Shown one piece after another: positions 29,072-48,442 of a DNA stretch of 64,000 nt. The stretch lies in the NCBI GenBank assembly GCA_012727955.1, contig JAAYGB010000005.1, positions 41,800 through 105,799 on the forward strand, in the 5' to 3' direction. Source of the DNA: Bacillota bacterium. Lineage in GTDB: Bacteria > Bacillota > Limnochordia > DTU087 > JAAYGB01. How positions within the stretch are numbered: position 1 is the first letter of the stretch; each line of letters opens with the position of its first letter. A model generated the notes under the pieces. The model was not told the DNA's origin. It was given only the letters and a program-made list of their open reading frames with translations, and searched no databases. The translations under genes and the position numbers were made by a program.

Positions 29072-29719
29072 ATGAAGGGTAAATACTTAATTGTGACTGC
29101 ATTATTGGTGGCCACCGTCTGGTTTGGCCTTGTCGGCCTGGGCTCGGCGGCAACGACCACGTGGGGACCAACGGGGTTAATTAATGTCCCCACCGCGGAT
29201 GTCAACGTTCCCGGTCGCTTAGATTTGGCGATGCATCATTTGAAGAGTCGAACATCCTTAGTCGCCAGCTACGGCGTCTTGGACACCTTGGAGGCCGGCA
29301 TCGGAGTGCACAACCTAGGCGGCGACAGTGAGTTGTCCATTAACGTCAAGGGTGTTCTGATCGAAGAGACTGCGGACCTACCGGCCCTGGCCCTGGGTCT
29401 CAGCGGCGTTGAGGATACCACCTATTACATGGTGGCCAGCAAGAGTTTGCCGGGCTTGGGCATTCGGGGACACCTGGGTATCGGTAGCGGAAGGGTCGAC
29501 GGCCTGTTCATCGGGGCTGAGAAGGTACTCAATCCCGTGACGGTTACCACTTCCGGACAGGGAATGAGAATCCCGGTAACGACTTTGATGGCCGAGTGGG
29601 ATGGTTCCGACCTCAATATCGGTGCCGACTTCGCCTTCAGCTATGGCCTGAAGGTCAGGGTCATGATCAATGACATGGATTCCCTGGGTGTCGGTTTGCA
29701 GCTCAGTGCTCAACTCTAG
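29072..29719 (+). CDS. putative small outer-membrane beta-barrel protein
   Basis: 215 aa; signal peptide 'MKGKYLIVTALLVATVWFGLVGLGSA'; mature N-term 'TWGPTGLINVPTADV' (an OMP plug/N-term-like motif); alternating amphipathic beta-strand pattern, Gly-rich; inside the LPS/OM cluster. Confidence 0.4.
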   Translation: MKGKYLIVTALLVATVWFGLVGLGSAATTTWGPTGLINVPTADVNVPGRLDLAMHHLKSRTSLVASYGVLDTLEAGIGVHNLGGDSELSINVKGVLIEETADLPALALGLSGVEDTTYYMVASKSLPGLGIRGHLGIGSGRVDGLFIGAEKVLNPVTVTTSGQGMRIPVTTLMAEWDGSDLNIGADFAFSYGLKVRVMINDMDSLGVGLQLSAQL

Positions 29720-29794: not shown

Positions 29795-30613
29795 TTGCGG
29801 TTGTGGTGCCGGTCCCTGGTGATGGTGCCCTTGCTTCTAGCATGGTGGCAAGGGGCCCATCCAGCGGTAGCTGCCGGCATGATATCCGCTCGGGTGGCTG
29901 GCATGGCAGATGCGGCAGTGGCCTTGCCTGGGATTGAGGCGCTGTGGAGTAACCCCGCCGGAATGATTGCCCATCCCCAATTAAGTGTGGGCTTATCGGC
30001 TATGGTGGCCGACGGAGGGGTCAGGAGACGGTCGGGGCTGTATTTTCAGCCAGACAACGGCCTAGGAGCCGGAGCCTTAGGTTGGCGCCGCAGTCGCTGG
30101 AACCCTGGGGAGGGCATAGATCAGATTCAGTATACCTTGGCGATTTCCCATCACGTCTGGTCCTTCGGCGGTACCATCGGTTGGGTCGATTACAAAACAG
30201 CTGACGGTACCGGTGACGCTGGAGCGGTTGTGGATTTCGGTGTTCAATTCGCTCCTGGTGCAGAGGTGGTGGTGGGGGCAGCGATTAACCGAGTCTATTC
30301 TACATTGTCCGATGGGTTGGCTATTGCCAGACCCCAGGCCAGCCTCGGTGTTAGCACCACTGCTGTCCCAGACTTAACACTGGCCCTGGAGCTAGCGGAT
30401 TTAACGGGACCGGAAGTGGGGCTCAAGGTTGGAGTAGAGTATCGCTTGACTGAGGCGATGGCAACTCGATTGGGTACCTATCGAGGCCTTAGCCGGGGCT
30501 GGGAAAGCTGGACAGCGGGATTGGGCTGGCATCAGGACAATTGGTTAGTCGATTGGGCCCTTGTCCTTGATGCTGGAATCACCCATTGGATTGGCATAGG
30601 ATGGAATCTATAG
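29795..30613 (+). CDS. putative outer-membrane beta-barrel protein (FadL/PorV-like N-terminal motif)
   Basis: 272 aa; signal-like N-term; 'ISARVAGMADAAVALPGIEALWSNPAGM' resembles the FadL/OmpP1-family N-terminal motif; beta-rich; ends in an aromatic-rich ...HWIGIGWNL. Confidence 0.4.
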   Translation: MRLWCRSLVMVPLLLAWWQGAHPAVAAGMISARVAGMADAAVALPGIEALWSNPAGMIAHPQLSVGLSAMVADGGVRRRSGLYFQPDNGLGAGALGWRRSRWNPGEGIDQIQYTLAISHHVWSFGGTIGWVDYKTADGTGDAGAVVDFGVQFAPGAEVVVGAAINRVYSTLSDGLAIARPQASLGVSTTAVPDLTLALELADLTGPEVGLKVGVEYRLTEAMATRLGTYRGLSRGWESWTAGLGWHQDNWLVDWALVLDAGITHWIGIGWNL

Positions 30614-30709: not shown

Positions 30710-31795
30710 ATGGGGATAAAGCTGCTGGACAAATACGCCGTCAAGGAGTTTTTGGGTCCCTTTGTTGCCTGTGTGGGCGGCATTACCATTTTACTCATCA
30801 GTGGATATTTGTTTGAGCTGTCAGATTTGGTGTTTGTCAAGCGGGTGCCCTTTGCTGTTGTGTTACAGTTGTTGGGATACCGCATCCCTGCGGTCCTGAC
30901 ATTAACCCTACCCATTGGTGTACTCTTTGCTACCTTTCTCAGTCTGGGTCGATTTGTTAAGGATAATGAGCTGACGGTGATGCTCTGTGCCGGCCATCGG
31001 TTGGCTCGCTTTGCCCTTCCCTACCTGGTGATTGGCTTGGCGGTTAGTGGGATCACCCTGGCGGCCAACGAGCATCTGGTACCCTATACCAATCATCGGG
31101 AGGCCAATATCCTTCGCCGGTTGGTCTTGCAGGATGGGCTGCCGGTGATTGAGGAAAAGGTGTTCTTTAAGGATCCTGATAATCGCTTTTTCTATATCAA
31201 TCGCGTTGATCGCGACCGCAACCTGCTGTCAGAGGTGATGATCTACGTTCCCAATCCCGAGTCGGATTTTCCCACTTTAATCACCGCCAGGACCGGAGAG
31301 TTTCGCGACAACCTTTGGCACCTGCAAAATGGCATTCAGCGGGAATTTGACTCCCAGGGATATTTGCGACGGGAAGTGGTTTTTGCCACCTTGGATATTG
31401 TCACCGAAGAACCCGCCGAAGCCTACCTTGGCAAACAAAAAACCACTGAAGAAATGAATCGTAGGGAATTGCGGGAACACATCGCCGTCTTCGAAGCCAG
31501 TGGAATCAAAGTGGACTCCTTTGTCGTTGATTATCATCTTAAGTTGGCGCTGCCCGGGGCCAGCTTGATATTTGTCCTATTGGCGGTGCCCTTTGGCTTT
31601 CACAGTGGTCGGGGCGGTCGGTTCTTTGCGGTCTTGGTGGGGTTGGGAATCGTATTTCTGTATTACGCTGCCACTTCTATTTTTCGATCCATGGGAGCCA
31701 ATGGGATCCTTGCCACTGGCCCGGCGGCGTGGCTGAGCAATATTCTCTTTGGAGGCGTCGGGGCAGCAGCCATCCTTTGGCTGGAAAGGCGATAG
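30710..31795 (+). CDS. lptF: LPS export ABC permease LptF/LptG family (YjgP/YjgQ)
   Basis: 361 aa; 3 N-terminal TM, periplasmic beta-jellyroll region, 3 C-terminal TM; 'LDKYAVKEFLGPF' is a typical LptF/G start. Assignment F vs G is arbitrary. Confidence 0.8.
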   Translation: MGIKLLDKYAVKEFLGPFVACVGGITILLISGYLFELSDLVFVKRVPFAVVLQLLGYRIPAVLTLTLPIGVLFATFLSLGRFVKDNELTVMLCAGHRLARFALPYLVIGLAVSGITLAANEHLVPYTNHREANILRRLVLQDGLPVIEEKVFFKDPDNRFFYINRVDRDRNLLSEVMIYVPNPESDFPTLITARTGEFRDNLWHLQNGIQREFDSQGYLRREVVFATLDIVTEEPAEAYLGKQKTTEEMNRRELREHIAVFEASGIKVDSFVVDYHLKLALPGASLIFVLLAVPFGFHSGRGGRFFAVLVGLGIVFLYYAATSIFRSMGANGILATGPAAWLSNILFGGVGAAAILWLERR

Positions 31796-34912: not shown

Positions 34913-35615
34913 AAGGGTTTTAGGGTTGTGGCTGTTATGCTTGTGTGTGGCGGGTTCCGGGCTGGGCTTGGCCCAGGAATCTCGGGATAGAGTATTGATT
35001 AAGATCTTTGAATCCGATCCCGAGGCGAAGACTACTTCCTATAGTTTGGCTACCAATGAGCTGCATATTGAGCCTCCCTCTGGCTACGTCGAATTGATTC
35101 GGGACAACACTACCTTGGAGGCTAAGCAGGTAGACTATGCCCAGGAGAGTCAGGTCGCGGTGCTGCAGCGGGACGTAAAGGTCACGGACCCGGAAATTGA
35201 TCTGTGGACCGACAAGTTGACGGTGCAGTTTAACGACGATCTGTACATCGCCGAGGGAAAGGTGCGCCTGATGCAGTGGGAAGTTGATGCCCAGGGTGAG
35301 CGAGGGGCGCAAGAGCTCTACCTTACCGCGGACAAGGTAACTATTAACGATGCAGCGAAGACGGTACAGGCTCAAGGTAGGGTTTACGTGGAAGAGGCGG
35401 ATCGACGGGTCTGGTCGGAAACCATGGATTATGATCAGCAGCGGGAGATCATGGTCTTTACCGGCGATGTGCGAATGGAGACGGAGTCGGGAAACCGCCT
35501 GCAGGGGAATCGAGTTGTGGTGGATTTGGCCACCGATGAGGTCACGGTTTTTGGTCCCGTAACGGGCGAGTTTATCCTTGAAACTGAAGAAGAGGCCGAG
35601 CCGGTAGGAGATTAA
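34872..35615 (+). CDS. lptA: periplasmic LPS transport protein LptA (OstA-like)
   Basis: 247 aa (true start probably ATG 34881 or later); signal peptide 'VLGLWLLCLCVAGSGLGLAQE'; repeated OstA-like beta-jellyroll segments 'VTVFGPVTGEF'. Confidence 0.7.
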   Translation: MENMIRRKGNPRVKRVLGLWLLCLCVAGSGLGLAQESRDRVLIKIFESDPEAKTTSYSLATNELHIEPPSGYVELIRDNTTLEAKQVDYAQESQVAVLQRDVKVTDPEIDLWTDKLTVQFNDDLYIAEGKVRLMQWEVDAQGERGAQELYLTADKVTINDAAKTVQAQGRVYVEEADRRVWSETMDYDQQREIMVFTGDVRMETESGNRLQGNRVVVDLATDEVTVFGPVTGEFILETEEEAEPVGD

Positions 35616-35815
35616 AGCTCGGTGCTTTTCGATGAAGCATAAATAGAGCATACATAGGAAGGGACGTGTTCCAGTCATCGGTGTTCCGGTGGCTAGGGTG
35701 CGTCCCTTCCCTGGTCTTGGGAGGATGTAAACTCTGCCAGGGCCACCAAAGGGAACAACTCGGGCCATAACCTAACAATTGATGCAAGAATTATCTGTAT
35801 ATTTACCGAGAGTGT

Positions 35816-35826
35816 CATGTTATAAT
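35816..35826 (+). promoter_or_regulatory. putative extended -10 promoter (TGtTATAAT) upstream of ftsX-like gene
   Basis: 'catgttataat' at 35816-35826, ~27 nt upstream of the ATG at 35853; no good -35. Confidence 0.3.
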
Positions 35827-35852
35827 TGCCATGCTGGGAGGTGAAGTAGGCA

Positions 35853-37979
35853 ATGATGACACTGTTTCGTGACGGTTTTGGCCGAGATCTGGTGGTCTTA
35901 ATGATCGTTAGTATCGTGGCGGGAACAATTCTGTCTACCGGAATTGCTAAGGCCGTTGATGCCTATTTTGGCGATACCATCAATGGTTTGATCGGTGATT
36001 TCGGTGAATATGATCTTATTCTACACATTAGAGAAGATGCCAAGGAAGCGGCGATGACAGAGCTGAAGGCCTTGGCAGAGAATCGACTACCGGGAATGAA
36101 GATGAGTGACGGAGTGACTATTGCGGGTAAGGTCAATGTCTTTATCGCTATCCCGGAGGAAGAGAAAACGAAAGAGACCTTAGAGAACCTGGACAATATT
36201 TTCGGAGACATCCCAGGTCAGTCAGGGTTTACCCTGATGATAGAGCCAACGGTCGTCGTGCAAGGCACCCACTCCGCGGTCAGGGGAAGATTGATTGAGG
36301 AGATCGAGGCGGTACCGGGAGTGAGCTTTGTCTTTCGGGATGGAGGCAGTTTGTATGCTGTTCTAGAGTCTGTGGACAAGTCTACTGAAGTAAATGAAGC
36401 GGTCAAGAACATCTTGCAGCAGTATCAACTACTAGAGATTAGTTTTCCCATGGGACAGGAGACAGAGGATGTGGCTTCCACCGGTGCGGTGGTAATTGCG
36501 GAGCTGGAGAATAGGTATGCTCCCAGTCTAATCGAAAACATCACCCTGTCGCAGGATACCGAGAACTATCAAGCCTTTGTGAAGACCTTGGCAGAGATGA
36601 AGCTGTTTCTGGAAAACTACGCGACTAAGGTGACCATCCCCATCGAGGGTCTGGAGCCGCTGAATGTCGGCAATCGGGTAGTGGTCCTCACCGCCGAGGA
36701 TAATCTGGCGGAGGGAGAACCCGTTGGGGAAGAACAGCTGGTGATCGAGGTTACCTCTATTACCGGTAGCGAGGCCAAGGGCTTGATTATCCAGGGTGAT
36801 ATCAGTGACGTTGAGGGCCAAGGGGAGCTAAATGGTTACCGGGTGCGAGCCGGTAAGGTAGGTTCCCGGGTCGGGTCTGTGATCTTGGAGAATGATCGCT
36901 ATCGACTAATTCGAGCCATTGACGAAAGTATCGCCCTGTTGACCCAGCTGGACAGTCTGTCCGGTACGGCCGATGAGGCGGTGGAGAACGCGCAGGAGAC
37001 CCTGGAGCTCTTCCAGGAATCGCTGGTGAAGCTGGAAGAATTGCAGACCCAGATTGAGGAGTTGAATCGAAGCCTCAATGGTGGTCCCGATGCCGGCGCG
37101 GGTAATGTGGTTCTGTCGATGCTGATCAGCCAGGTGATGCGGGGCCTAGTGGGAGATAAGTCCGAGGAAAGTGCCGGTAATCTCCAGGATCTCGATATTG
37201 CAGCGATGCAGGAGACTTTGGCTGCTCTAGCGGGACAATTGAAAAACGTTGAAACCGTGGATGTGCAGCTGATTATTGATCAGATTCAACAGGTCAAGGA
37301 GTCCTTGCCTCAGCTGCGGGACGAAGAGATTGGCCAGTCGATTCAGCTGATCAACAGCTATATCCAGGGACAAGTGATTCCCGGAGAAAAGATTCAGCTG
37401 TTGCTGGATGGCGACTCGGTATCGGCCGAGGAGGCTCAAGGGGTGATTCGGGAGGTTCTGGACAACCAGTACCTGTCGGTATACTCCTCGCCGGTGGGGA
37501 TTGTTAACCCCAACGCAAGAGCTGAGCTATTTCGAGTGTTGAGCGAAGTGAGGGCAACTATCGCCGGGATGTTGGCGATATTCTTTACCCTTCTCTTCTT
37601 GATTTTGGACTACTCGACGGTGATGAGTGTGATGAAGCAGCTAGAGTCGAGAATCACCAGTCGGTCACTGTGGAAGCGAGTATTTAGTCCCGTTAAATTC
37701 ATCGGAGTTGCCCTGGGGGCAATCCTGTTATTTACCATTTATCTGGCCAGCCGAGCGCAGATTCCCTATGTAGCTCCTTGGCATATGCTGATCCTCGGTG
37801 GTATCTTGGGGGGCTTGGCTGCTATTTTGTGCGACCGATTCAGCCCCGTCAATGAGGATGAAATGATGGCCGGTGAGGCCCTGGGATTGACCTACGTTCA
37901 GATCATGCGTAATATCGTTATTCCAGAGAGTCGTCCCGGTTTGCTCAATCTGCTAAATGGCTGGAAGAAGACCTTCTAA
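35853..37979 (+). CDS. FtsX/MacB-type (type VII) ABC permease with very large (~530 aa) periplasmic coiled-coil domain
   Basis: 708 aa. Topology is TM1 (res 13-33), a huge extracytoplasmic alpha/beta + coiled-coil region, then 3 TM at the C-terminus (FtsX-like 1+3 arrangement). Immediately followed by an FtsE-type ATPase. Confidence 0.6.
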   Translation: MMTLFRDGFGRDLVVLMIVSIVAGTILSTGIAKAVDAYFGDTINGLIGDFGEYDLILHIREDAKEAAMTELKALAENRLPGMKMSDGVTIAGKVNVFIAIPEEEKTKETLENLDNIFGDIPGQSGFTLMIEPTVVVQGTHSAVRGRLIEEIEAVPGVSFVFRDGGSLYAVLESVDKSTEVNEAVKNILQQYQLLEISFPMGQETEDVASTGAVVIAELENRYAPSLIENITLSQDTENYQAFVKTLAEMKLFLENYATKVTIPIEGLEPLNVGNRVVVLTAEDNLAEGEPVGEEQLVIEVTSITGSEAKGLIIQGDISDVEGQGELNGYRVRAGKVGSRVGSVILENDRYRLIRAIDESIALLTQLDSLSGTADEAVENAQETLELFQESLVKLEELQTQIEELNRSLNGGPDAGAGNVVLSMLISQVMRGLVGDKSEESAGNLQDLDIAAMQETLAALAGQLKNVETVDVQLIIDQIQQVKESLPQLRDEEIGQSIQLINSYIQGQVIPGEKIQLLLDGDSVSAEEAQGVIREVLDNQYLSVYSSPVGIVNPNARAELFRVLSEVRATIAGMLAIFFTLLFLILDYSTVMSVMKQLESRITSRSLWKRVFSPVKFIGVALGAILLFTIYLASRAQIPYVAPWHMLILGGILGGLAAILCDRFSPVNEDEMMAGEALGLTYVQIMRNIVIPESRPGLLNLLNGWKKTF

Positions 37980-38016
37980 GGGAGCTTATGCGGGATTTTG
38001 GGATGGAGGTGAAGCA

Positions 38017-38745
38017 GTGATCGAAATCTATGATCTGAAGAAAACCTACGGCAAGACAGTAGCCCTTGATGGGATGAGTCTCAAAGTTCGCAAGGGCGAA
38101 ACAGTGGTGATTATGGGTCCCAGCGGGTGCGGAAAGTCCACGTCTATCCGTTGTATCAATCGGTTGACGGAGCCTGATTCCGGGAAAATCCTTTTCAACG
38201 GCCAGTCGATTTTGGATATGAGCCACAGAGAGCTCTTGGCCTATCGCCAACAGGTGGGCTTTGTGTTTCAGAAGTTCAACCTGATCAATCGGATGACGGT
38301 GAAGGAGAATGTGATGTTGGCACCGGTACTAAATGGACTCAACCGCAGTGAGGCTGAGTCCTTGGCAGAGCGGGCCTTGGCCAGAGTAGGGCTGAGTTCC
38401 GCTGCCCATAAGCGTCCCCATGAGATGTCCGGTGGAGAGCAACAACGGGTTGGAATTGCCAGAGCCTTGGTTAACAACCCCCAGCTGGTTCTCTGGGATG
38501 AGCCCACTGCTTCATTGGATCCGATTTTGGTGCGAGAAGTTCTAGAAGTGATGGAGGACTTGGTGAACACCACTCAAACTACGTCAATCATCGTGACCCA
38601 CGAAGTGGACTTTGCTTTGCGGGTGGCAGACCGGATTGTACTCATGGATGGCGGCCGGGTAGTTGAGGAGGGTTCACCGGAAACGATATTCGTGGATCCG
38701 AAGTCGGAGATTGGAGATAAATACAAGAAACTGATTGCAGCTTAG
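38017..38745 (+). CDS. FtsE/LolD/MacB-type ABC transporter ATP-binding protein
   Basis: GTG 38017 after a GGAGGTGAAG RBS; Walker A 'GPSGCGKST'; signature 'MSGGEQQRVGIARALVNNPQLVLWDEPTASLDP' (the SGGEQQRV + NNP form typical of the FtsE/LolD family); 242 aa without C-terminal regulatory domain. Confidence 0.85.
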   Translation: MIEIYDLKKTYGKTVALDGMSLKVRKGETVVIMGPSGCGKSTSIRCINRLTEPDSGKILFNGQSILDMSHRELLAYRQQVGFVFQKFNLINRMTVKENVMLAPVLNGLNRSEAESLAERALARVGLSSAAHKRPHEMSGGEQQRVGIARALVNNPQLVLWDEPTASLDPILVREVLEVMEDLVNTTQTTSIIVTHEVDFALRVADRIVLMDGGRVVEEGSPETIFVDPKSEIGDKYKKLIAA

Positions 38746-38749
38746 TCGC

Positions 38750-38776
38750 GGCCAGGGAGTGATCCCTGGCTTTTTT
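38750..38776 (+). terminator. rho-independent terminator
   Basis: stem gccaggga/tccctggc, loop gtga, T6. Confidence 0.85.
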
Positions 38777-38896
38777 GTTAGAGAGAGTGGTATGATAAGA
38801 TTTTAGATAAGGTACTTTTGTCTCGATTTGGGCAGGAATGATGAGACAAAACAAGAAAAAGTGATTCTAATGGATAGGAGCGGGAGGGAGTAGCAT

Positions 38897-39730: not shown

Positions 39731-39819
39731 CAGGAATAGAGGAGGCGACCTTGTCTCAATAATGTATGTGAGGGATGTTTTTCCTCAGAGTACAAATATT
39801 TACTAAGGAGGTCAACTCT

Positions 39820-40803
39820 TTGCGCGCAATTCTGCCTTTAGCCGGGATCGGTAGCCGATTGCGACCTCATACCCACACCCTACCTAAATCCTTGGTACCG
39901 GTAGCGGGCAAACCTATCTTGGGACATATTCTCGACCGGTTGATTCCCGTTGGAGTAAGTGAAGTGGTCTTGATCGTCGGTCAGATGGGTGACATGATCG
40001 TAGACTACGTCAGTGAGAACTATAATTTTGTCGTCCGCGTGGTCAATCAGGAGGAGAGACGGGGTCTTGGTCATGCCGTCTACCTATCTCGAGAACATGT
40101 CGACCCGGCGGAGCCGGTGCTGATTGTTTTGGGCGACACCATCGTCGAAGCTGATTTGGCAGCGGTGGTCAGAAGTCCCCACAGCGTCTTGGGGGTACGG
40201 GAGGTGGACAATCCCCAAAGTTTCGGCGTTGTCTCTTTGGAAGGAGATCGTATCGCTGACCTGGTGGAGAAGCCAGCCAACCCGCCGTCGAACCTAGCAG
40301 TGGTGGGGGTCTATTACATCAAGAACACTGCTCTGTTGCTTAATTGTCTGGAATACATAATCGATCAGGGAATTACCTTGAAGGGCGAATTTCAGCTCAC
40401 CGATGCCCTGCGCCGGATGATTAAACTGGGCGAACCCATGGGTGTTTTCCCAGTGGAAAGCTGGTTTGACTGTGGTAATCCCGAGAGCCTGTTGGCCACC
40501 AATCGATATCTCTTGGACCGGGATGGAGCCGTTAGTGCTCCCCTGCAAAATACGGTGGTAATTCCCCCAGTACATATTGCCAGAACTGCTAGGGTAGCCA
40601 ACAGTGTCGTCGGCCCCTATGTGTCGGTAGCTGATCATGCCGTGGTGGAGAACTGCCTGATCAGGGACAGCATCCTCAACGAAGGCGCAGTTGTGCGGGA
40701 CATTACCTTAGATGGGTCTTTAATCGGACATAACGCTGTCGTCACTGGTCGGTACACTAAGCTGAATATCGGGGACTCTTCGGAGATCATTTCCGGTTCC
40801 TAG
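39820..40803 (+). CDS. sugar-1-phosphate nucleotidyltransferase with C-terminal hexapeptide (LbH) domain
   Basis: TTG 39820 after an AAGGAGGT RBS; 'AILPLAGIGSRLRPHTHTLPKSLVPVAGKPIL' is the NTP_transferase G-rich loop; 'LVEKP' motif; C-terminal hexapeptide repeats. Confidence 0.75.
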   Translation: MRAILPLAGIGSRLRPHTHTLPKSLVPVAGKPILGHILDRLIPVGVSEVVLIVGQMGDMIVDYVSENYNFVVRVVNQEERRGLGHAVYLSREHVDPAEPVLIVLGDTIVEADLAAVVRSPHSVLGVREVDNPQSFGVVSLEGDRIADLVEKPANPPSNLAVVGVYYIKNTALLLNCLEYIIDQGITLKGEFQLTDALRRMIKLGEPMGVFPVESWFDCGNPESLLATNRYLLDRDGAVSAPLQNTVVIPPVHIARTARVANSVVGPYVSVADHAVVENCLIRDSILNEGAVVRDITLDGSLIGHNAVVTGRYTKLNIGDSSEIISGS

Positions 40804-42313: not shown

Positions 42314-42928
42314 ATGACCCAGTCAAAAAGCGTGTTCCTAAGGGCAAAGGAGTGCGCCTCCCTGTCGTTGCCTGAAACGCTGTACAAGATCCGGGGGATC
42401 CTGCCTTTGCCTCTACTGTTACTCAGCATCCTGTGGTCTCGTCCGAATCCCCAGTCCTTGACCTGGGGTTTGGTCCTGGTTGCAGGGGGAGAACTAGTTC
42501 GCCTCTGGGTAGCGGGGTTTCTCGGTGGACAGCCAATAGAGCAACGGGACGGGTTGCCCTTAGTGGAGCATGGTCCCTATAGTTTGATGCGGCATCCCCG
42601 CCAGATTGGGAATTTCCTCATTGGGATGGGATTAAGTGTCGCTGCAAACTGGTGGATCGGATACCTGCTCTATTTCGGCTATTGCCTCCTTGTGATTCGG
42701 GTATTGATTCCCGTGGAAGAGGATGTCTTGGTGGCCAGCTATGGTGATGAGTATCGCCAATATTGTGCTAGGGTACATCGCTTTCGTCCGAAGGTTAGCA
42801 AGGCCATCCTTAGCCGAGAGGGTTTTGCCGGGAAAGATGCCTTTGCCAGCGAGCGGTCGATGCTGTTCTTCATCGCTGCTATTGGGGCATGTTTTGCTGC
42901 AAAATGTTTGTTTCTGGTAACGGGATAG
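42314..42928 (+). CDS. integral-membrane SAM-dependent methyltransferase of the ICMT/PEMT family
   Basis: 204 aa; 4-5 TM; 'GPYSLMRHPRQIGNF' (G-x-Y-xxx-RHP-x-Y-x-G-like) and the C-terminal 'EEDVLVASYGDEYRQYCARVHRFRP' (EE..L...FG.EY..Y...V.R) motifs; nested between lpxA and lpxI. Confidence 0.6.
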   Translation: MTQSKSVFLRAKECASLSLPETLYKIRGILPLPLLLLSILWSRPNPQSLTWGLVLVAGGELVRLWVAGFLGGQPIEQRDGLPLVEHGPYSLMRHPRQIGNFLIGMGLSVAANWWIGYLLYFGYCLLVIRVLIPVEEDVLVASYGDEYRQYCARVHRFRPKVSKAILSREGFAGKDAFASERSMLFFIAAIGACFAAKCLFLVTG

Positions 42929-44991: not shown

Positions 44992-45117
44992 CTTGCTGCG
45001 AAGGACTGGTATGCCGGGATCTGGCTCTAGTGGTAGGGTTTGCGTAGAGGTATCCATGGGAAAATAGCGAATTTTGTTGTAGGGACAGGTATTCAGTTTG
45101 ATGAGGGAGAGTTTGTT

Positions 45118-45837
45118 TTGACCATCGTAGCCCAGGATCTGGTGAAGTCCTATCGCGGTCGAAGAGTTGTAGATCGAGTCTGTCTCGAGGTAGCTCGAGG
45201 TGAAGTAGTAGGCTTACTGGGGCCAAACGGGGCAGGGAAGACTACTACTTTTTACATGATCGTGGGATTAGAAAGGCCGGACTCTGGGAGCGTCCAGATC
45301 GACGGACAGGAGATTACCCCCTTACCGATGTATCGGCGCGCCCGGTTGGGAATTGGTTATCTGCCCCAGGAAGCATCGATTTTTCGCAAGTTGACGGTGA
45401 CGGAGAATATCTTAGCGATTTTAGAAGTTATGGGGTTGGATAAAAGACAACGACAGCAGCGCCTGGAGGAGCTGTTGGAGGAATTTGACCTGGGGCATGT
45501 CAGGAATCAGCAGGGCGTGATGTTGTCCGGGGGAGAGCGGCGTCGAGTGGAAATCGCTCGGGCTCTGGCAACAAACCCGGCTTTCATCCTGTTGGATGAA
45601 CCCTTCGCCGGGGTCGACCCCATCGCGGTGGCCGATATCCAGACGATAGTGGCTTACCTGAAGAAGCGGGGTTTGGGGGTATTGATCACCGATCATAACG
45701 TGAGAGAGACCCTGGCCATCACCGATCGAGCCTATATTATGCATCAGGGCAAGATCCTAGTTTCTGGCTCCGCCGAGGAAATCGCCACCAACGAGACTGC
45801 CCGCAAGTTTTACCTGGGAGAGCGGTTTAGCCTATGA
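45118..45837 (+). CDS. lptB: LPS export ABC transporter ATP-binding protein LptB
   Basis: TTG 45118 after a GGAG RBS (the longer ORF from 45040 is unlikely); Walker A 'GPNGAGKTT', '[15 protein letters not shown]', LptB-type C-terminal '[33 protein letters not shown]'. Confidence 0.85.
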
Positions 45838-46919
45838 GAATTCTAGATAAATATATAGCCAAGGAGACCATTTTGCCCGTCTTGTTTGGGATTGCCGCCT
45901 TCACCAGTATCTTCGTTGGCACCGAATTGATCGATATGGCTAAGTTGGTGGTCCGATATGGGGCACCGCTGAGTAAGGCGGTTTTGGTTTTCCTGTATAA
46001 TCTGCCGCAGATCTTTACCTACACCTTTCCGATGTCGGTACTTCTGGCAACGCTGTTGTCGATGAGTCGGCTGTCTTCTACCAGTGAGATTGTGGCAATG
46101 CAGGCCGGTGGCGTCAGCTTTCGGCGGATTATTGCACCGGTGTTGGTGGTGGCAGTAATCGTCACGGGAATGAGTTTTTTTATTAGTGAGAAGGTGGCCC
46201 CTAGGGCCAATGAACGCAGCGCCCTGTTGATGCTGGAGATTCGGGGTGGAAGTATCCCCACGGTGACCAGAAACGTTATTCTGCAGACGCACGAGCGGGG
46301 AATAATGAATTGGTTCCTGTATGCCGCCCGCTTTGACGCTAAGACTCAAATCATGCATGATGTGACGATTGTATCCCTAGACAACGGCAAGCCCGTTGAG
46401 AACACCTATGCGGAGCAGATTGTGTGGGATGAGACAGGATGGTATATGGAGAATGGAGTGACCAATCGCTTCAATGCCGATGGCCAGGTGGTGACGGTGA
46501 ACTTCGCTGGAGCCCGCCAGCCCGTGGATATCGGTCAGAAGCCGCAGGACATCGTTCGGGCCCAAAAGGACCCCGAAGAGATGAATATTCGGGAATTGTC
46601 GCAGCATATCAATATCCTAGCCAGTCAAGGCCGCAATGTCCGCGAGTTGCAGGTGAAGTGGCACTCGAAGTTAGCCATGCCCTTTGCTAGCCTGATCTTT
46701 GCTTTGGTGGGAGCTCCTTTGGGAATTCAGCCCCATAGATCGGCGACCTCCATTGGATTTGGGCTGTCAATTGTAGTTATTTTTATCTATTACGTGATTA
46801 TGACGGCGGGAGAGGCTCTAGCCCAAGGGGGATATCTGCCCCCGGTTGTCGGTGGTTGGATCGCCAATATTTTCTTTGTTGTTCTGGGATTGGGGTTGTT
46901 GTTTCGTTCTTCTCGGTGA
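45834..46919 (+). CDS. lptG: LPS export ABC permease LptF/LptG family (YjgP/YjgQ)
   Basis: 361 aa; '[27 protein letters not shown]' is a typical LptF/G start; 3+3 TM with a periplasmic domain; translationally coupled to lptB. Confidence 0.82.
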
Positions 46920-46948: not shown

Positions 46949-48442
46949 GTGGTGACCGCGGTGTATGGACTTGGGTTAATTCTCACACTGGTGTTGTCCG
47001 GTGGAGTGATTGCCTATATCGGTGACAAGATTGGAATGAAGATCGGTCGCAAGCGGCTTAGCCTCTTTGGCCTTCGCCCCAAGTATACATCCATCGTGAT
47101 TACCATTGTCACCGGGATCCTGATTGCCGCGGCGTCCCTGGCAGTGCTGACCATTGCTTCTGCCGATGTGCGAACCGCCCTATTTCACATGAAGGAGATT
47201 CAAACGGCCCTAGCAACCAGTGAAGTCCGCTTTAATGCCAGCCAACAACGGCTCTTTGAAGTGGAACAGGAGCTAGCTGCCCAGGAAGCCCAAGTGCAGT
47301 CCTTGGCTGAGGAGATTCAACGGAAAACCCTCGAGTATGAGGAGCTAAGCCACCAGCTGCTAGAGGTGGTTGAGCAGAGAGATGCCGCCAAGGTGGAACT
47401 GGAGTCCGCACAGGCGGAAGCTGCGGAAATGGAACGGCAGTTTGCCGACTTACAAGCGGACTATGAGAATATGATGACAAACTTTGAATTGATCAAAACG
47501 GAGTATCAAGAGATGAATGCCGCCTACACCGCCATCGCACAGCAATACGAAACTGCCTTGGCCCAGTACAATCAAGCCCGGTCGGATTTGGCTGCCACAG
47601 AAGAGGAGCTAGAGGAGACCCGCAGGTCCTTGGCACTGGAGAAACAGCGGCTAGAGGATATGAAGGAGATCAATCAGCTGTTCCAAGCCAAGATCGACGA
47701 ACTGAGACAGACTGAAGAGGAAATGAAGACCCATATGCAGGCCCTGACCCAGGAGTACAATCTGATGGTCAGCCTGCAGAACGAGCTGATTCAAGAAAAA
47801 CAGACTGAGCTGGAACTGATTAAATCCAGTAATTTTGTCTTTCAGGCCAATGAGATTATTCTGGCCACGGTGATGGAAGGAAGCCGAGATATAGAGGATA
47901 TGCGGCAGGAGATTATTACCTTCCTAAACCAGGCTAATCAGATTGCCCTAAGGCGTGGGGTGATGGATAAGGCTACCTCGAGGGCTGCCCTTGTGATTGA
48001 AAATGAGCATCTCCAGGAAGTATTGCATTATCTGGAACGGGCTGAGGGCAAACACGTGATTCGCGCCCTGGCTGCCAGCAACACGCTACCCGGTGAGCCC
48101 GTGGAGGTTCGGCTGGTCTATCTGCCTAATACTCTGATCTATAAGAAGGGCGAGATTATTCTCAGTCGTGAGATCGACTTGTCGGCACCGGGAGTGAATG
48201 TGGAAGATGAAATCGCGGCAATGCTCAGCCGGATCAACGATATTGGGATTTCCCGGGGAATGATCACCTATGCCGATGGTACCCTGGGTACCGCCCTTAC
48301 CGGCGATGAGTTCATGGCTACACTCCGGCAGATGCGCCAGCACGATAGTATGATTGAGGTGCAGGCAGTAGCCCGCCATGATATTTGGAATGCCGTAGGT
48401 CCCCTCAGCATCGATTTGAAGGTGGTGCCCTTAGACTCATAG
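46949..48442 (+). CDS. DUF3084-like membrane-anchored long coiled-coil protein
   Basis: 497 aa; N-term 'GDKIGMKIGRKRLSLFGLRPKYTSIVITIVTGILIAAASLAVL' resembles the DUF3084 N-terminal block; ~250 aa of Q/E-rich coiled coil; C-terminal alpha/beta domain. Confidence 0.45.
   Translation: MVTAVYGLGLILTLVLSGGVIAYIGDKIGMKIGRKRLSLFGLRPKYTSIVITIVTGILIAAASLAVLTIASADVRTALFHMKEIQTALATSEVRFNASQQRLFEVEQELAAQEAQVQSLAEEIQRKTLEYEELSHQLLEVVEQRDAAKVELESAQAEAAEMERQFADLQADYENMMTNFELIKTEYQEMNAAYTAIAQQYETALAQYNQARSDLAATEEELEETRRSLALEKQRLEDMKEINQLFQAKIDELRQTEEEMKTHMQALTQEYNLMVSLQNELIQEKQTELELIKSSNFVFQANEIILATVMEGSRDIEDMRQEIITFLNQANQIALRRGVMDKATSRAALVIENEHLQEVLHYLERAEGKHVIRALAASNTLPGEPVEVRLVYLPNTLIYKKGEIILSREIDLSAPGVNVEDEIAAMLSRINDIGISRGMITYADGTLGTALTGDEFMATLRQMRQHDSMIEVQAVARHDIWNAVGPLSIDLKVVPLDS

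Follow-up and report, generated by a model that had tools for sequence, protein, structure and literature searches.

The described systems that come closest to the gene pair considered here can be listed as follows: (i) Type I importers (MetI, ArtQ, HisQM, GlnP), which are ATP-binding cassette (ABC) systems whose membrane core has at least five transmembrane (TM) helices, the two after the EAA loop lining the translocation path; (ii) Type VII systems (MacB, FtsEX, LolCDE, YbbAP); (iii) MlaFED; (iv) FtsEX together with EnvC or PcsB; and (v) MmpL4 and MmpL5, which are proton-driven RND proteins with 12 TM helices. The pair lies in a stretch of 64,000 nucleotides from a Bacillota bacterium (contig JAAYGB010000005.1; hereafter, the window) and encodes a 708-residue membrane subunit, here called BIG, and an ABC ATPase. 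On balance, the evidence leans towards a single ABC machine, in which a cut-down importer permease has been turned into a periplasmic mechanotransducer for outer-membrane (OM) biogenesis. Observed here are the pair, its topology, a truncated BPD_transp_1 region with an EAA loop, the clade of the nucleotide-binding domain (NBD), gene fusion, synteny and a narrow taxonomic range.

Like Type I importers, BIG has a canonically spaced EAA motif, preceded by the corresponding TM helices, and its ATPase is closest to ArtP, GlnQ and HisP. Unlike them, it lacks the two TM helices that follow the EAA loop and has a 530-residue periplasmic insertion and an invariant Asp in TM2; besides, no binding-protein gene accompanies the pair, its location is a lipopolysaccharide (LPS)/OM cluster and, in Limnochordales, TM domain and NBD are fused. 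With Type VII systems BIG shares four TM helices with the N terminus inside, a periplasmic domain between TM1 and TM2 and stalks (PMC5985334), as well as alpha/beta modules beside the stalks and an envelope-biogenesis setting; by analogy, the BIG-ATPase pair most likely works like the Type VII mechanotransducers. In contrast to these, it has no FtsX or MacB_PCD homology, its predicted coupling element is a C-terminal EAA loop and not a helix between TM2 and TM3, its NBD belongs to a different clade, and a coiled-coil hairpin replaces the Sabre subdomain.

MlaFED is, likewise, an ABC system that is encoded in a Firmicute OM cluster and extends into the periplasm by helices (the long helical MlaD of Veillonella parvula MlaEFD), and its reported distribution is roughly complementary to that of the BIG family (PMC10665443). 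However, BIG matches neither MlaE nor MCE, is expected to form a dimer instead of a hexamer and has no C-terminal OM beta-barrel; a functional equivalence between BIG and MlaFED is hypothesised. In FtsEX-EnvC and FtsEX-PcsB, as in the pair, an ATPase is coupled to a periplasmic coiled-coil hairpin that could relay a conformational change to a distant site, but BIG has the coiled coil in its own chain, lacks a LytM or CHAP effector domain and has a TM domain of another family. Finally, MmpL4 and MmpL5 resemble BIG in having ferredoxin-like porter-type modules with an inserted long coiled coil (the structural match to MmpL5 is non-significant), but share no sequence relationship with it.

The membrane subunit and its ATPase

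From the N to the C terminus, BIG consists of TM1, a periplasmic domain of ~530 residues, TM2-TM4 and an EAA coupling loop. The features of the pair are given below, with the evidence for each in brackets:

35853..37979, + strand: BIG, membrane subunit of 708 residues (open reading frame, translation, 80 orthologous loci, family alignment, AlphaFold2 model)
35889..35957, + strand: TM1, residues 13-35 (hydropathy, DSSP of the model, conservation)
35958..37556, + strand: periplasmic domain, residues 36-568 (AlphaFold2 secondary structure, Foldseek, domain coverage across members)
36894..37364, + strand: coiled-coil hairpin, residues 348-504 (AlphaFold2 long helices 348-409 and 449-504)
37557..37835, + strand: TM2-TM4, residues 569-661 (hydropathy, frequency of Asp586, BPD_transp_1 and PotC/PotB alignments)
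37860..37943, + strand: EAA-type coupling loop, residues 670-697 (profile-to-PDB matches, residue frequencies)
38017..38745, + strand: ABC ATPase, 242 residues from GTG 38017 (motifs, family scores, start-site analysis)

The ancestry of the membrane domain is indicated, above all, by its C-terminal part. TM2-TM4 of BIG matches the N-terminal ~110 positions of BPD_transp_1 (PF00528), which is the Pfam family that matches most members (10 of the 31 scanned; best E 2.7e-5). These matches are confined to profile positions 15-119 of 184: for instance, residues 650-773 of member P0046 align to positions 15-111, and residues 660-723 of P0163 to positions 56-119. The EAA loop of BIG, E670-x-(M/E)672-A673-G674-x3-G678-x9-I688-x-I690-P691-x3-P695-G696, has exactly the spacing of the canonical EAA-X3-G-X9-I-X-L-P motif, with at least 97% conservation at the A, G and P residues (A673 in 155/159 members, G678 and P691 in 158/159 each, P695 in 159/159); a divergent fused member, P0159, has a literal EAARAFG. 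BIG ends 11 residues after the motif. All the full-length members examined either end or switch to the NBD ~10-50 residues past it, and the two TM helices that normally come after the EAA loop are absent from every one of them. A profile of the C-terminal 160 residues, compared with all PDB sequences, gave 11 matches, nine of which are type-I permeases (MetI with E 0.034, PotC, PotB, an ArtQ-like permease and SugB) that keep the same register across the TM-TM-EAA stretch; the full-length profile returned only coiled-coil noise, MetI and PotC. As judged from these alignments, TM2-TM4 and the C terminus of BIG are likely homologous to BPD_transp_1, at a sub-threshold level. Within TM2 (37557-37628), Asp586 (codon 37608-37610; motif LILD-Y/H/Q) is present in 159/159 members; ordinary BPD_transp_1 permeases are not known to have a counterpart of it.

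In the earlier note on this DNA, the permease had been described as being of the FtsX/MacB type, which is not what the profile searches indicate. Neither FtsX (PF02687) nor MacB_PCD (PF12704) matched BIG or any of the 31 members at E<=1. The search with FtsX, MacB_PCD and LolC models, which that note had proposed, gave no match either: Pfam and NCBIfam assigned BIG to no family and returned coiled-coil noise plus a MetI match. FtsX-family membership is hence rejected at sequence level, as there is no FtsX match and an EAA coupling loop is found instead. The same note had failed to match the permease to any described family, and rightly so, since no curated Pfam or NCBIfam model covers BIG. The TM2-TM3 loop, where the major coupling helix of MacB is located (PMC5985334), is unconserved and 0-56 residues long in the family (160 members). 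An isolated model of the TM domain (pLDDT 76.5) gave OppB, MalG and a PstSCAB chain as first-ranked structural matches, and no MacB, FtsX or LolC chain among its 45 matches. As for other lipid or solute transport families, MlaE (PF02405) and MCE (PF02470) do not match BIG and, of the 78 families that the 31 members match, neither ranks in the 25 most frequent; a solute-binding-protein Pfam domain was found neither in BIG nor in these members.

The ATPase has intact motifs (Walker A GPSGCGKST, signature SGGEQQRV, NNP, Walker B LWDEPT). Its best family score is that of GlnQ (240 bits), followed by ProV, TcyN and ArtP, whereas FtsE and LolD reach 185 and 181 bits, respectively, so that the FtsE/LolD type previously assigned to it has to be abandoned. 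The nearest PDB chains are amino-acid importer NBDs (4u00 and ArtP 4yms/3c41/2olj; E 1e-64 to 1e-62), with HisP (7e-54) and the MacB homologue 5xu1 (7e-44) among further matches. By these comparisons, the ATPase is of the polar-amino-acid-importer (ArtP/GlnQ/HisP) type, and an importer-clade NBD matches the EAA-type coupling helix of BIG. Identity with LptB was considered and rejected: LptB falls outside the top 25 models, and the true LptB (TIGR04406, 380.6 bits) is encoded at 45040-45837, adjoining a second lptF/G gene.

Both genes go together throughout the family. The ATPase gene directly follows that of BIG in 71/71 loci with enough sequence, and the ATPases of 80 loci are 51-80% identical. 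Furthermore, all seven members of 932-996 residues are BIG-NBD fusions of Limnochordales type; ABC_tran matches the four fused members scanned with E 1e-29 to 1e-36, and the NBDs of P0151 and P0159 share 47-48% identity with the window ATPase. The gene fusion identifies BIG as the membrane partner of the ATPase. One of the fusions is WP_324716177, from Carboxydochorda subterranea / Limnochorda sp. L945t, and cultured Carboxydochorda subterranea is diderm according to transmission electron microscopy (PMC11456536).

In one clade (loci L002, L003, L004, L005, L008, L009 and L011), the two genes are separated by a spacer of 270-380 nt (for instance, L002:6831-7160, L003:12134-12470 and L008:12128-12440). 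It contains two invariant blocks, GCGAAGGTAGTGCCTTTGCCTTCCA.CC and GGTTGG.AGGCA..GGGACTACCTTCGC, which are mutual reverse complements and form a closing stem of ~27 bp just upstream of the Shine-Dalgarno sequence of the ATPase gene. The spacer folds with -114.6 kcal/mol (z -2.95) and has no Rfam match; a third small gene was looked for in the ~300-nt spacers of these relatives and no conserved ORF (open reading frame) was found, the conserved element being the RNA-like stem instead. This element, which may be a regulatory or processing RNA or an inserted repeat, is absent from the window, where the spacer measures 37 nt.

Regarding topology, the hydrophobic segments of BIG (Kyte-Doolittle) are residues 13-35, 569-592, 616-635 and 643-661. 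The 533-residue stretch between TM1 and TM2 is acidic (38 K+R vs 90 D+E; net -52), while the TM2-TM3 loop has six K/R. From hydropathy and charge distribution, it follows that BIG has its N terminus inside, a 1+3 arrangement of TM helices and a periplasmic domain. Both this arrangement, with which the AlphaFold2 helices agree, and the oversized helical periplasmic domain, seen in the hydropathy segments and in the model, had been correctly recognised before.

The AlphaFold2 model (31-sequence alignment; pLDDT 75.7, pTM 0.46) predicts a TM1 helix over residues 9-47, whose periplasmic end forms a stalk of ~12 residues, and a TM2 helix over residues 555-599; both project 12-14 residues past the membrane. 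A near-invariant G48/G51-E-Y-D54 motif comes after the TM1 helix. In the model, the following periplasmic parts can be distinguished: (i) ferredoxin-like alpha/beta modules (residues 55-260); (ii) a beta-rich module (residues 275-346), dispensable and lacking in the subfamily of 575-650 residues; (iii) the coiled-coil hairpin, whose arms of ~60 residues correspond to ~9 nm at 1.5 A per residue, and which is 100-200 residues longer in relatives of 780-905 residues; and (iv) a beta-alpha-beta module (residues 513-552), followed by the stalk helix from residue 555. Beta-alpha-beta modules adjoin both stalks. The tip of the hairpin (residues 404-447), predicted with low confidence, comprises a Gly-rich loop and a hydrophobic amphipathic helix (416-433), and the model ends in short C-terminal helices (668-676 and 681-689). 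The best-conserved parts of BIG are membrane-proximal (D36/Y38/F39, G48, G51-E-Y-D54, R556, D586 and the EAA loop), whereas the hairpin is variable.

Foldseek comparison of the full model with the PDB gave nothing at E<1e-3; the top matches were MmpL5 (E 1.4e-3, prob 0.47, TM 0.11, not significant), tandem ACT/ferredoxin folds and AcrB, a ranking that suggests ferredoxin-like porter-type modules carrying a coiled coil. The periplasmic domain has no relatives among Pfam, NCBIfam or PDB sequences, and the lipoyl and beta-barrel domains that flank the alpha-hairpin in HlyD-family Pfam models were not found in BIG.

Both ORFs are present on the forward strand, where they had been placed in the earlier note. 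BIG is not a chance ORF, because a protein identical to it exists in NCBI (NLV90996.1, from a metagenome-assembled genome, MAG, labelled 'Firmicutes bacterium') and full-length orthologues with 27-72% identity occur in 80 genome loci. The longest ORF for the ATPase is 37957-38745, from ATG 37957; the true start is probably GTG 38017, since GGAGGTG lies 6 nt upstream and the orthologue at locus L001 has 242 residues. With this start, 37 nt (37980-38016) separate the two genes and there is no overlap. The 237-nt spacer between lptA and BIG contains a strong Shine-Dalgarno sequence read from the DNA, GGGAGGTG (35836-35843, + strand; 9 nt upstream of the BIG start), and a putative promoter element. 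The signals at both ends of the unit are:

35818-35826, + strand: candidate extended -10 promoter TGTTATAAT, read from the sequence and proposed by inference only
38750..38781, + strand: intrinsic terminator, a 9-bp GC-rich stem (38750-38771) followed by the T-run TTTTTGTT

The consensus promoter scan omitted the candidate -10, which has no good -35. The terminator, directly after the ATPase gene, closes the two-gene unit ahead of lpxC. With its own Shine-Dalgarno sequences and terminator, the pair is, therefore, a compact bicistronic unit inside the cluster. An antisense ORF of 277 residues (34935-35768, - strand) overlaps lptA and the lptA-BIG spacer and is probably spurious, given the conserved genes on the + strand. 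An Rfam scan of window positions 30-42 kb returned nothing real.

Genomic setting and distribution

The window contains a classical diderm-Firmicute OM cluster. As the earlier note had indicated, the pair sits inside its Lpt/Lpx part, between lptA and lpxC: LptF/G (30710), LptD-like (31900), LptC (34211), LptA (34872), the pair and LpxC (38897). The upstream order is FlgI, a NAGPA/AMIN protein, a SpoIVB-like peptidase, TamB, BamA, Skp-like proteins and LpxD; then a YjbH-like protein, a PorV-like OM protein, LptF/G, LptD-like, LptC, LptA, and BIG with its ATPase. Downstream of the pair come LpxC, an NTP-transferase, FabZ, LpxA, a PEMT-like protein, LpxI and LpxB, followed by LptB, the second LptF/G, a DUF3084 protein and an SLH-domain protein, possibly OmpM-like.

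This setting is conserved. In neighbourhood scans (±10 kb per locus), lpxC, fabZ, lpxA, lpxI, lpxB or lptB occurred within 4.5 kb downstream in 60/61 loci. The contrary pattern, with homologues in monoderm genomes and unlinked to lpt or lpx genes, is thus not the one found. Upstream, lptFG, lptD, lptC, lptA or lpxD occurred in 50/60 loci; at L073, the only one of the remaining upstream regions that was examined, the genes are waaA, kdsA and those of glycosyltransferases. Orenia has the same order as the window, lptF-lptG-(LptD-sized ORF)-lptC-lptA-BIG-ATPase-lpxC, although its LptD-sized ORF has no Pfam match, and a short, 608-residue form of BIG lies in the same type of cluster. Among the window ORFs scanned, no msbA and no TolC gene were found, nor any Mla gene (next to tamB or elsewhere), and no solute-binding-protein domain in the ORFs scanned at 11-54 kb.

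The 46 proteins retrieved by a word-indexed search are unnamed or 'hypothetical', save for an odd JGI label on one of them, and lack Pfam domains throughout. The family is small: when 1.84 billion representatives were searched exhaustively with a profile, no more than 245 matches were obtained, 203 of them at E<=1e-10. In terms of length, the following classes can be differentiated: (i) 575-650 residues, without the beta module; (ii) ~700 residues, as in the window; (iii) 780-905 residues, with an extended coiled coil; and (iv) 930-1000 residues, fused to the NBD. The carriers are Limnochordia-like Bacillota MAGs, Hydrogenispora, Capillibacterium, Candidatus Darwinibacter and Halanaerobiales, the latter represented by Orenia metallireducens and MAGs (loci L068, L075, L076 and L079). 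Labels of Negativicutes type were found on 2/80 loci, both from MAGs (L038, Selenomonadales; L039, Sporomusaceae); the neighbours of the pair at L038 are HD-GYP, Ada, MCP, NUDIX, Ddl and a collagen-repeat protein. A further locus, L048 (JBLNCC010000089.1), is labelled 'Betaproteobacteria bacterium MAG135' and carries a Firmicute-type cluster, LpxD-YjbH-LptFG-LptD-BIG-ATPase-LpxC-FabZ-LpxA-LpxI-LpxB; this contig is probably mis-binned or mislabelled.

Several other features of the cluster deserve mention. The Lpt inner-membrane genes are split, with one lptF/G (30710-31795) ahead of lptD-lptC-lptA, and lptB (45040-45837) plus the second lptF/G (45834-46919) located 14 kb downstream, after lpxB. 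Locus L081 has an MsbA-like gene (ABC_membrane + ABC_tran) on the downstream side of lpxB, where many other loci show an ABC-ATPase match. Right after the second lptF/G, the DUF3084 (COG4372) gene (46949-48442) encodes a membrane-anchored coiled-coil protein; this is one of the three conserved genes of unknown function highlighted in OM clusters by Antunes et al. (2016). Between lpxD and lptF/G there are a YjbH-like gene (29072-29719), which most related loci have in that position, and a candidate PorV/PorQ-like beta-barrel gene (29795-30613), found in a few close relatives. Finally, a sugar-1-phosphate nucleotidyltransferase with a hexapeptide tail (39775-40803, between lpxC and fabZ) and a PEMT/ICMT-like membrane methyltransferase (42314-42928, between lpxA and lpxI) hold conserved positions in several relatives, which suggests a lineage-specific modification of lipid A or of the envelope.

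Proposed mechanism, role and alternatives

In the mechanism proposed here, the complex would be BIG2-ATPase2, because NBDs work as dimers. Its membrane domain would come from a type-I importer permease that kept TM1, three further TM helices and the EAA loop, lost the two TM helices after that loop, and gained the periplasmic insertion of ~530 residues between TM1 and TM2. Since the C-terminal TM pair is gone, solute carriage across the inner membrane would be unlikely. The EAA helices would dock in the NBDs, and closure of the ArtP/GlnQ-like NBD dimer on ATP would drive, successively, these helices, TM4/TM2 and the TM1/TM2 stalk helices; the stalk motion would then reach the membrane-proximal alpha/beta modules and the ~9-nm coiled-coil arm, so as to perform work in the periplasm. 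This would amount to mechanotransmission as the term is used for MacB (PMC5985334); the likeness to MacB, FtsX and LolC would be due to convergence and not to common descent. A mechanotransmission-type envelope ABC system had already been suggested for this locus, and the data support it, although it is still something that we infer.

As conservation is membrane-proximal and the hairpin variable, an event at the outer face of the inner membrane would be involved, and the arm would be a lever, a spacer or a docking element. The fixed place of the pair behind lptFG-lptD-lptC-lptA and before lpxC-fabZ-lpxA-lpxI-lpxB, in turn, would tie its work to OM lipid/LPS biogenesis. A more specific role, possible but put forward tentatively, is to extract or handle a lipid (a phospholipid or an LPS intermediate) on the outer side of the inner membrane in the service of OM lipid homeostasis, standing in for MlaFED in lineages without it. 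It is favoured because of the lipid-A linkage, the reported distribution of Mla and the finding of Negativicutes-type labels on just two of the 80 loci. Mla is reported as absent from Halanaerobiales and present in few Limnochordia (PMC10665443).

A number of points weigh against this account. The BPD_transp_1 matches are sub-threshold (the best member reaches 24.4 bits vs a gathering cutoff of 26.4); the window BIG itself has no PF00528 match in the Pfam scan and gives only a 29-residue match to the EAA region of MetI (NCBIfam, E 0.022). The structural matches of the C-terminal model are not significant (OppB, E 0.86; MalG, E 1.2; TM-score ~0.35), the full model is of moderate quality and the hairpin tip is poorly conserved. 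At L038 alone, a MAG contig of 325 kb labelled uncultured Selenomonadales, the pair lies away from lpx and lpt genes. Regarding function, the lipid substrate is a proposal, and the complementarity with Mla is based on a literature statement and a locus scan. A dimer with eight TM helices could form some pathway. A hairpin present in two copies cannot close into a lipid conduit as the hexamers of MCE proteins or membrane fusion proteins do.

The alternative that survives best, unlikely as it is, is a regulator similar to FtsEX-EnvC/PcsB, in which ATP-driven movements of the coiled coil would turn a periplasmic enzyme or assembly factor on and off (for instance, a peptidoglycan hydrolase, an LPS/OM assembly protein or LpxC control), with no handling of lipids. 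The hairpin of FtsEX-EnvC is a long-range lever; that of BIG is variable in length, its hydrophobic tip could be a docking site, and a dimeric stoichiometry suits a lever more than a conduit. Genes related to peptidoglycan (NAGPA/AMIN, SpoIVB-like, LysM) are present in the same cluster. Nevertheless, no adjacent partner gene other than that of the ATPase is conserved, conservation is best near the membrane and not at the tip, and the invariant Asp586, buried in the bilayer, hints at a chemical step within or at the membrane.

It is improbable that BIG is an envelope-spanning export or tethering system, with its hairpin as a built-in adaptor docking on a TolC-like channel, LptD, BamA or TamB. 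Adaptor proteins have a beta-rich module ahead of a helical hairpin, as BIG does, but this module is dispensable in the 575-650-residue subfamily. The hairpin can be compared with those of MacA, AcrA and EmrA or with the coiled coil of MmpL4/5; the MmpL5 complex is the top Foldseek match and MmpL4, with a 'long coiled-coil domain', is also ranked, yet these matches are not significant. An arm of ~9 nm plus its base would be long enough to approach the wall or the OM; however, two hairpins are unable to form a closed duct and the window ORFs scanned include no TolC gene.

A Lol-like extractor, releasing inner-membrane lipoproteins in diderm Firmicutes that lack LolCDE, had been among the roles suggested in the earlier note and appears quite improbable. 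The layout of a 4-TM mechanotransducer does resemble LolC/E, and Lol is reported as absent from Negativicutes (PMC5007114) and from Terrabacteria in general (PMC10665443). The suggestion of a Lol replacement is weakened, however, by the Halanaerobiales, which carry both the BIG family and a LolA-LolCDE cluster (PMC5007114), and by the presence of the pair at just two Negativicutes-type loci (L038 and L039) despite the lack of Lol in that group. In addition, no LolA-like gene is linked to the pair, whose synteny is with lipid-A synthesis and not with lipoprotein maturation.

A conventional importer of a small solute, of the polar-amino-acid type and with its receptor fused to the permease, is very improbable. 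Such an arrangement has a precedent in the GlnPQ-type systems of Firmicutes, in which extracytoplasmic binding domains are fused to the permease, and both the GlnQ/ArtP-like NBD and the EAA signature would fit. But the full-length members examined lack the TM helices after the EAA loop (in the fusions the NBD follows directly), neither BIG nor the neighbouring ORFs scanned have a solute-binding-protein domain, a coiled coil of 150-350 residues has no role in a binding protein, and the strict lipid-A/Lpt synteny is kept across deep lineages. Least probable of all is a divergent Type VII member (FtsX/MacB/LolC) with an FtsE/LolD-type ATPase since, although the N-in 4-TM topology, the large domain between TM1 and TM2, the stalk-like helix extensions with ferredoxin-like modules by both stalks (as in the Porter subdomain; PMC5985334) and the weak Foldseek matches to AcrB porter regions are in its favour, the 31 members yield BPD_transp_1 in ten cases and FtsX or MacB_PCD in none, the conserved coupling element is the EAA loop and not the TM2-TM3 loop, the NBD scores importer NBDs above FtsE, LolD and MacB, and the TM-domain matches contain no chain of that type.

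Meaning for diderm Firmicutes

The BIG-ATPase pair is not described in the main text and supplementary files, as far as available, of the eLife 2016 paper on OM clusters, and was not found in the passages searched of the 2023 Mla paper (PMC10665443); a search of the literature on EAA-type mechanotransducers was likewise negative. What is new is the combination of a truncated type-I TM domain and a giant coiled-coil domain in the periplasm, in a system dedicated to the OM cluster; the ABC system itself is of a known kind. A broader and rather doubtful proposition is that this novel ABC architecture represents an ancestral, dedicated component of OM biogenesis in diderm Firmicutes, responsible for an ATP-driven traffic or homeostasis of lipids (phospholipid or LPS) that replaces MlaFED in Halanaerobiales and most Limnochordia.

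Diderm Firmicutes lack Lpp and Pal and, for the most part, Lol, while Halanaerobiales and most Limnochordia lack Mla. As regards the building and balancing of the OM in these bacteria, the BIG family is a testable candidate for one of the missing functions: it is conserved, ATP-driven, reaches into the periplasm, lies beside lipid-A genes in nearly all the loci scanned and is present in two deep lineages. The existence of a cultured diderm with a single-chain version (the above-mentioned Carboxydochorda subterranea) makes biochemistry and cryo-electron microscopy feasible. If the favoured reading of a truncated importer permease acting as a mechanotransducer is true, the design of four TM helices plus a large periplasmic domain would have arisen twice, in the FtsX/MacB fold and, independently, from an importer permease cut short, and the known range of ABC membrane-domain architectures would be wider.

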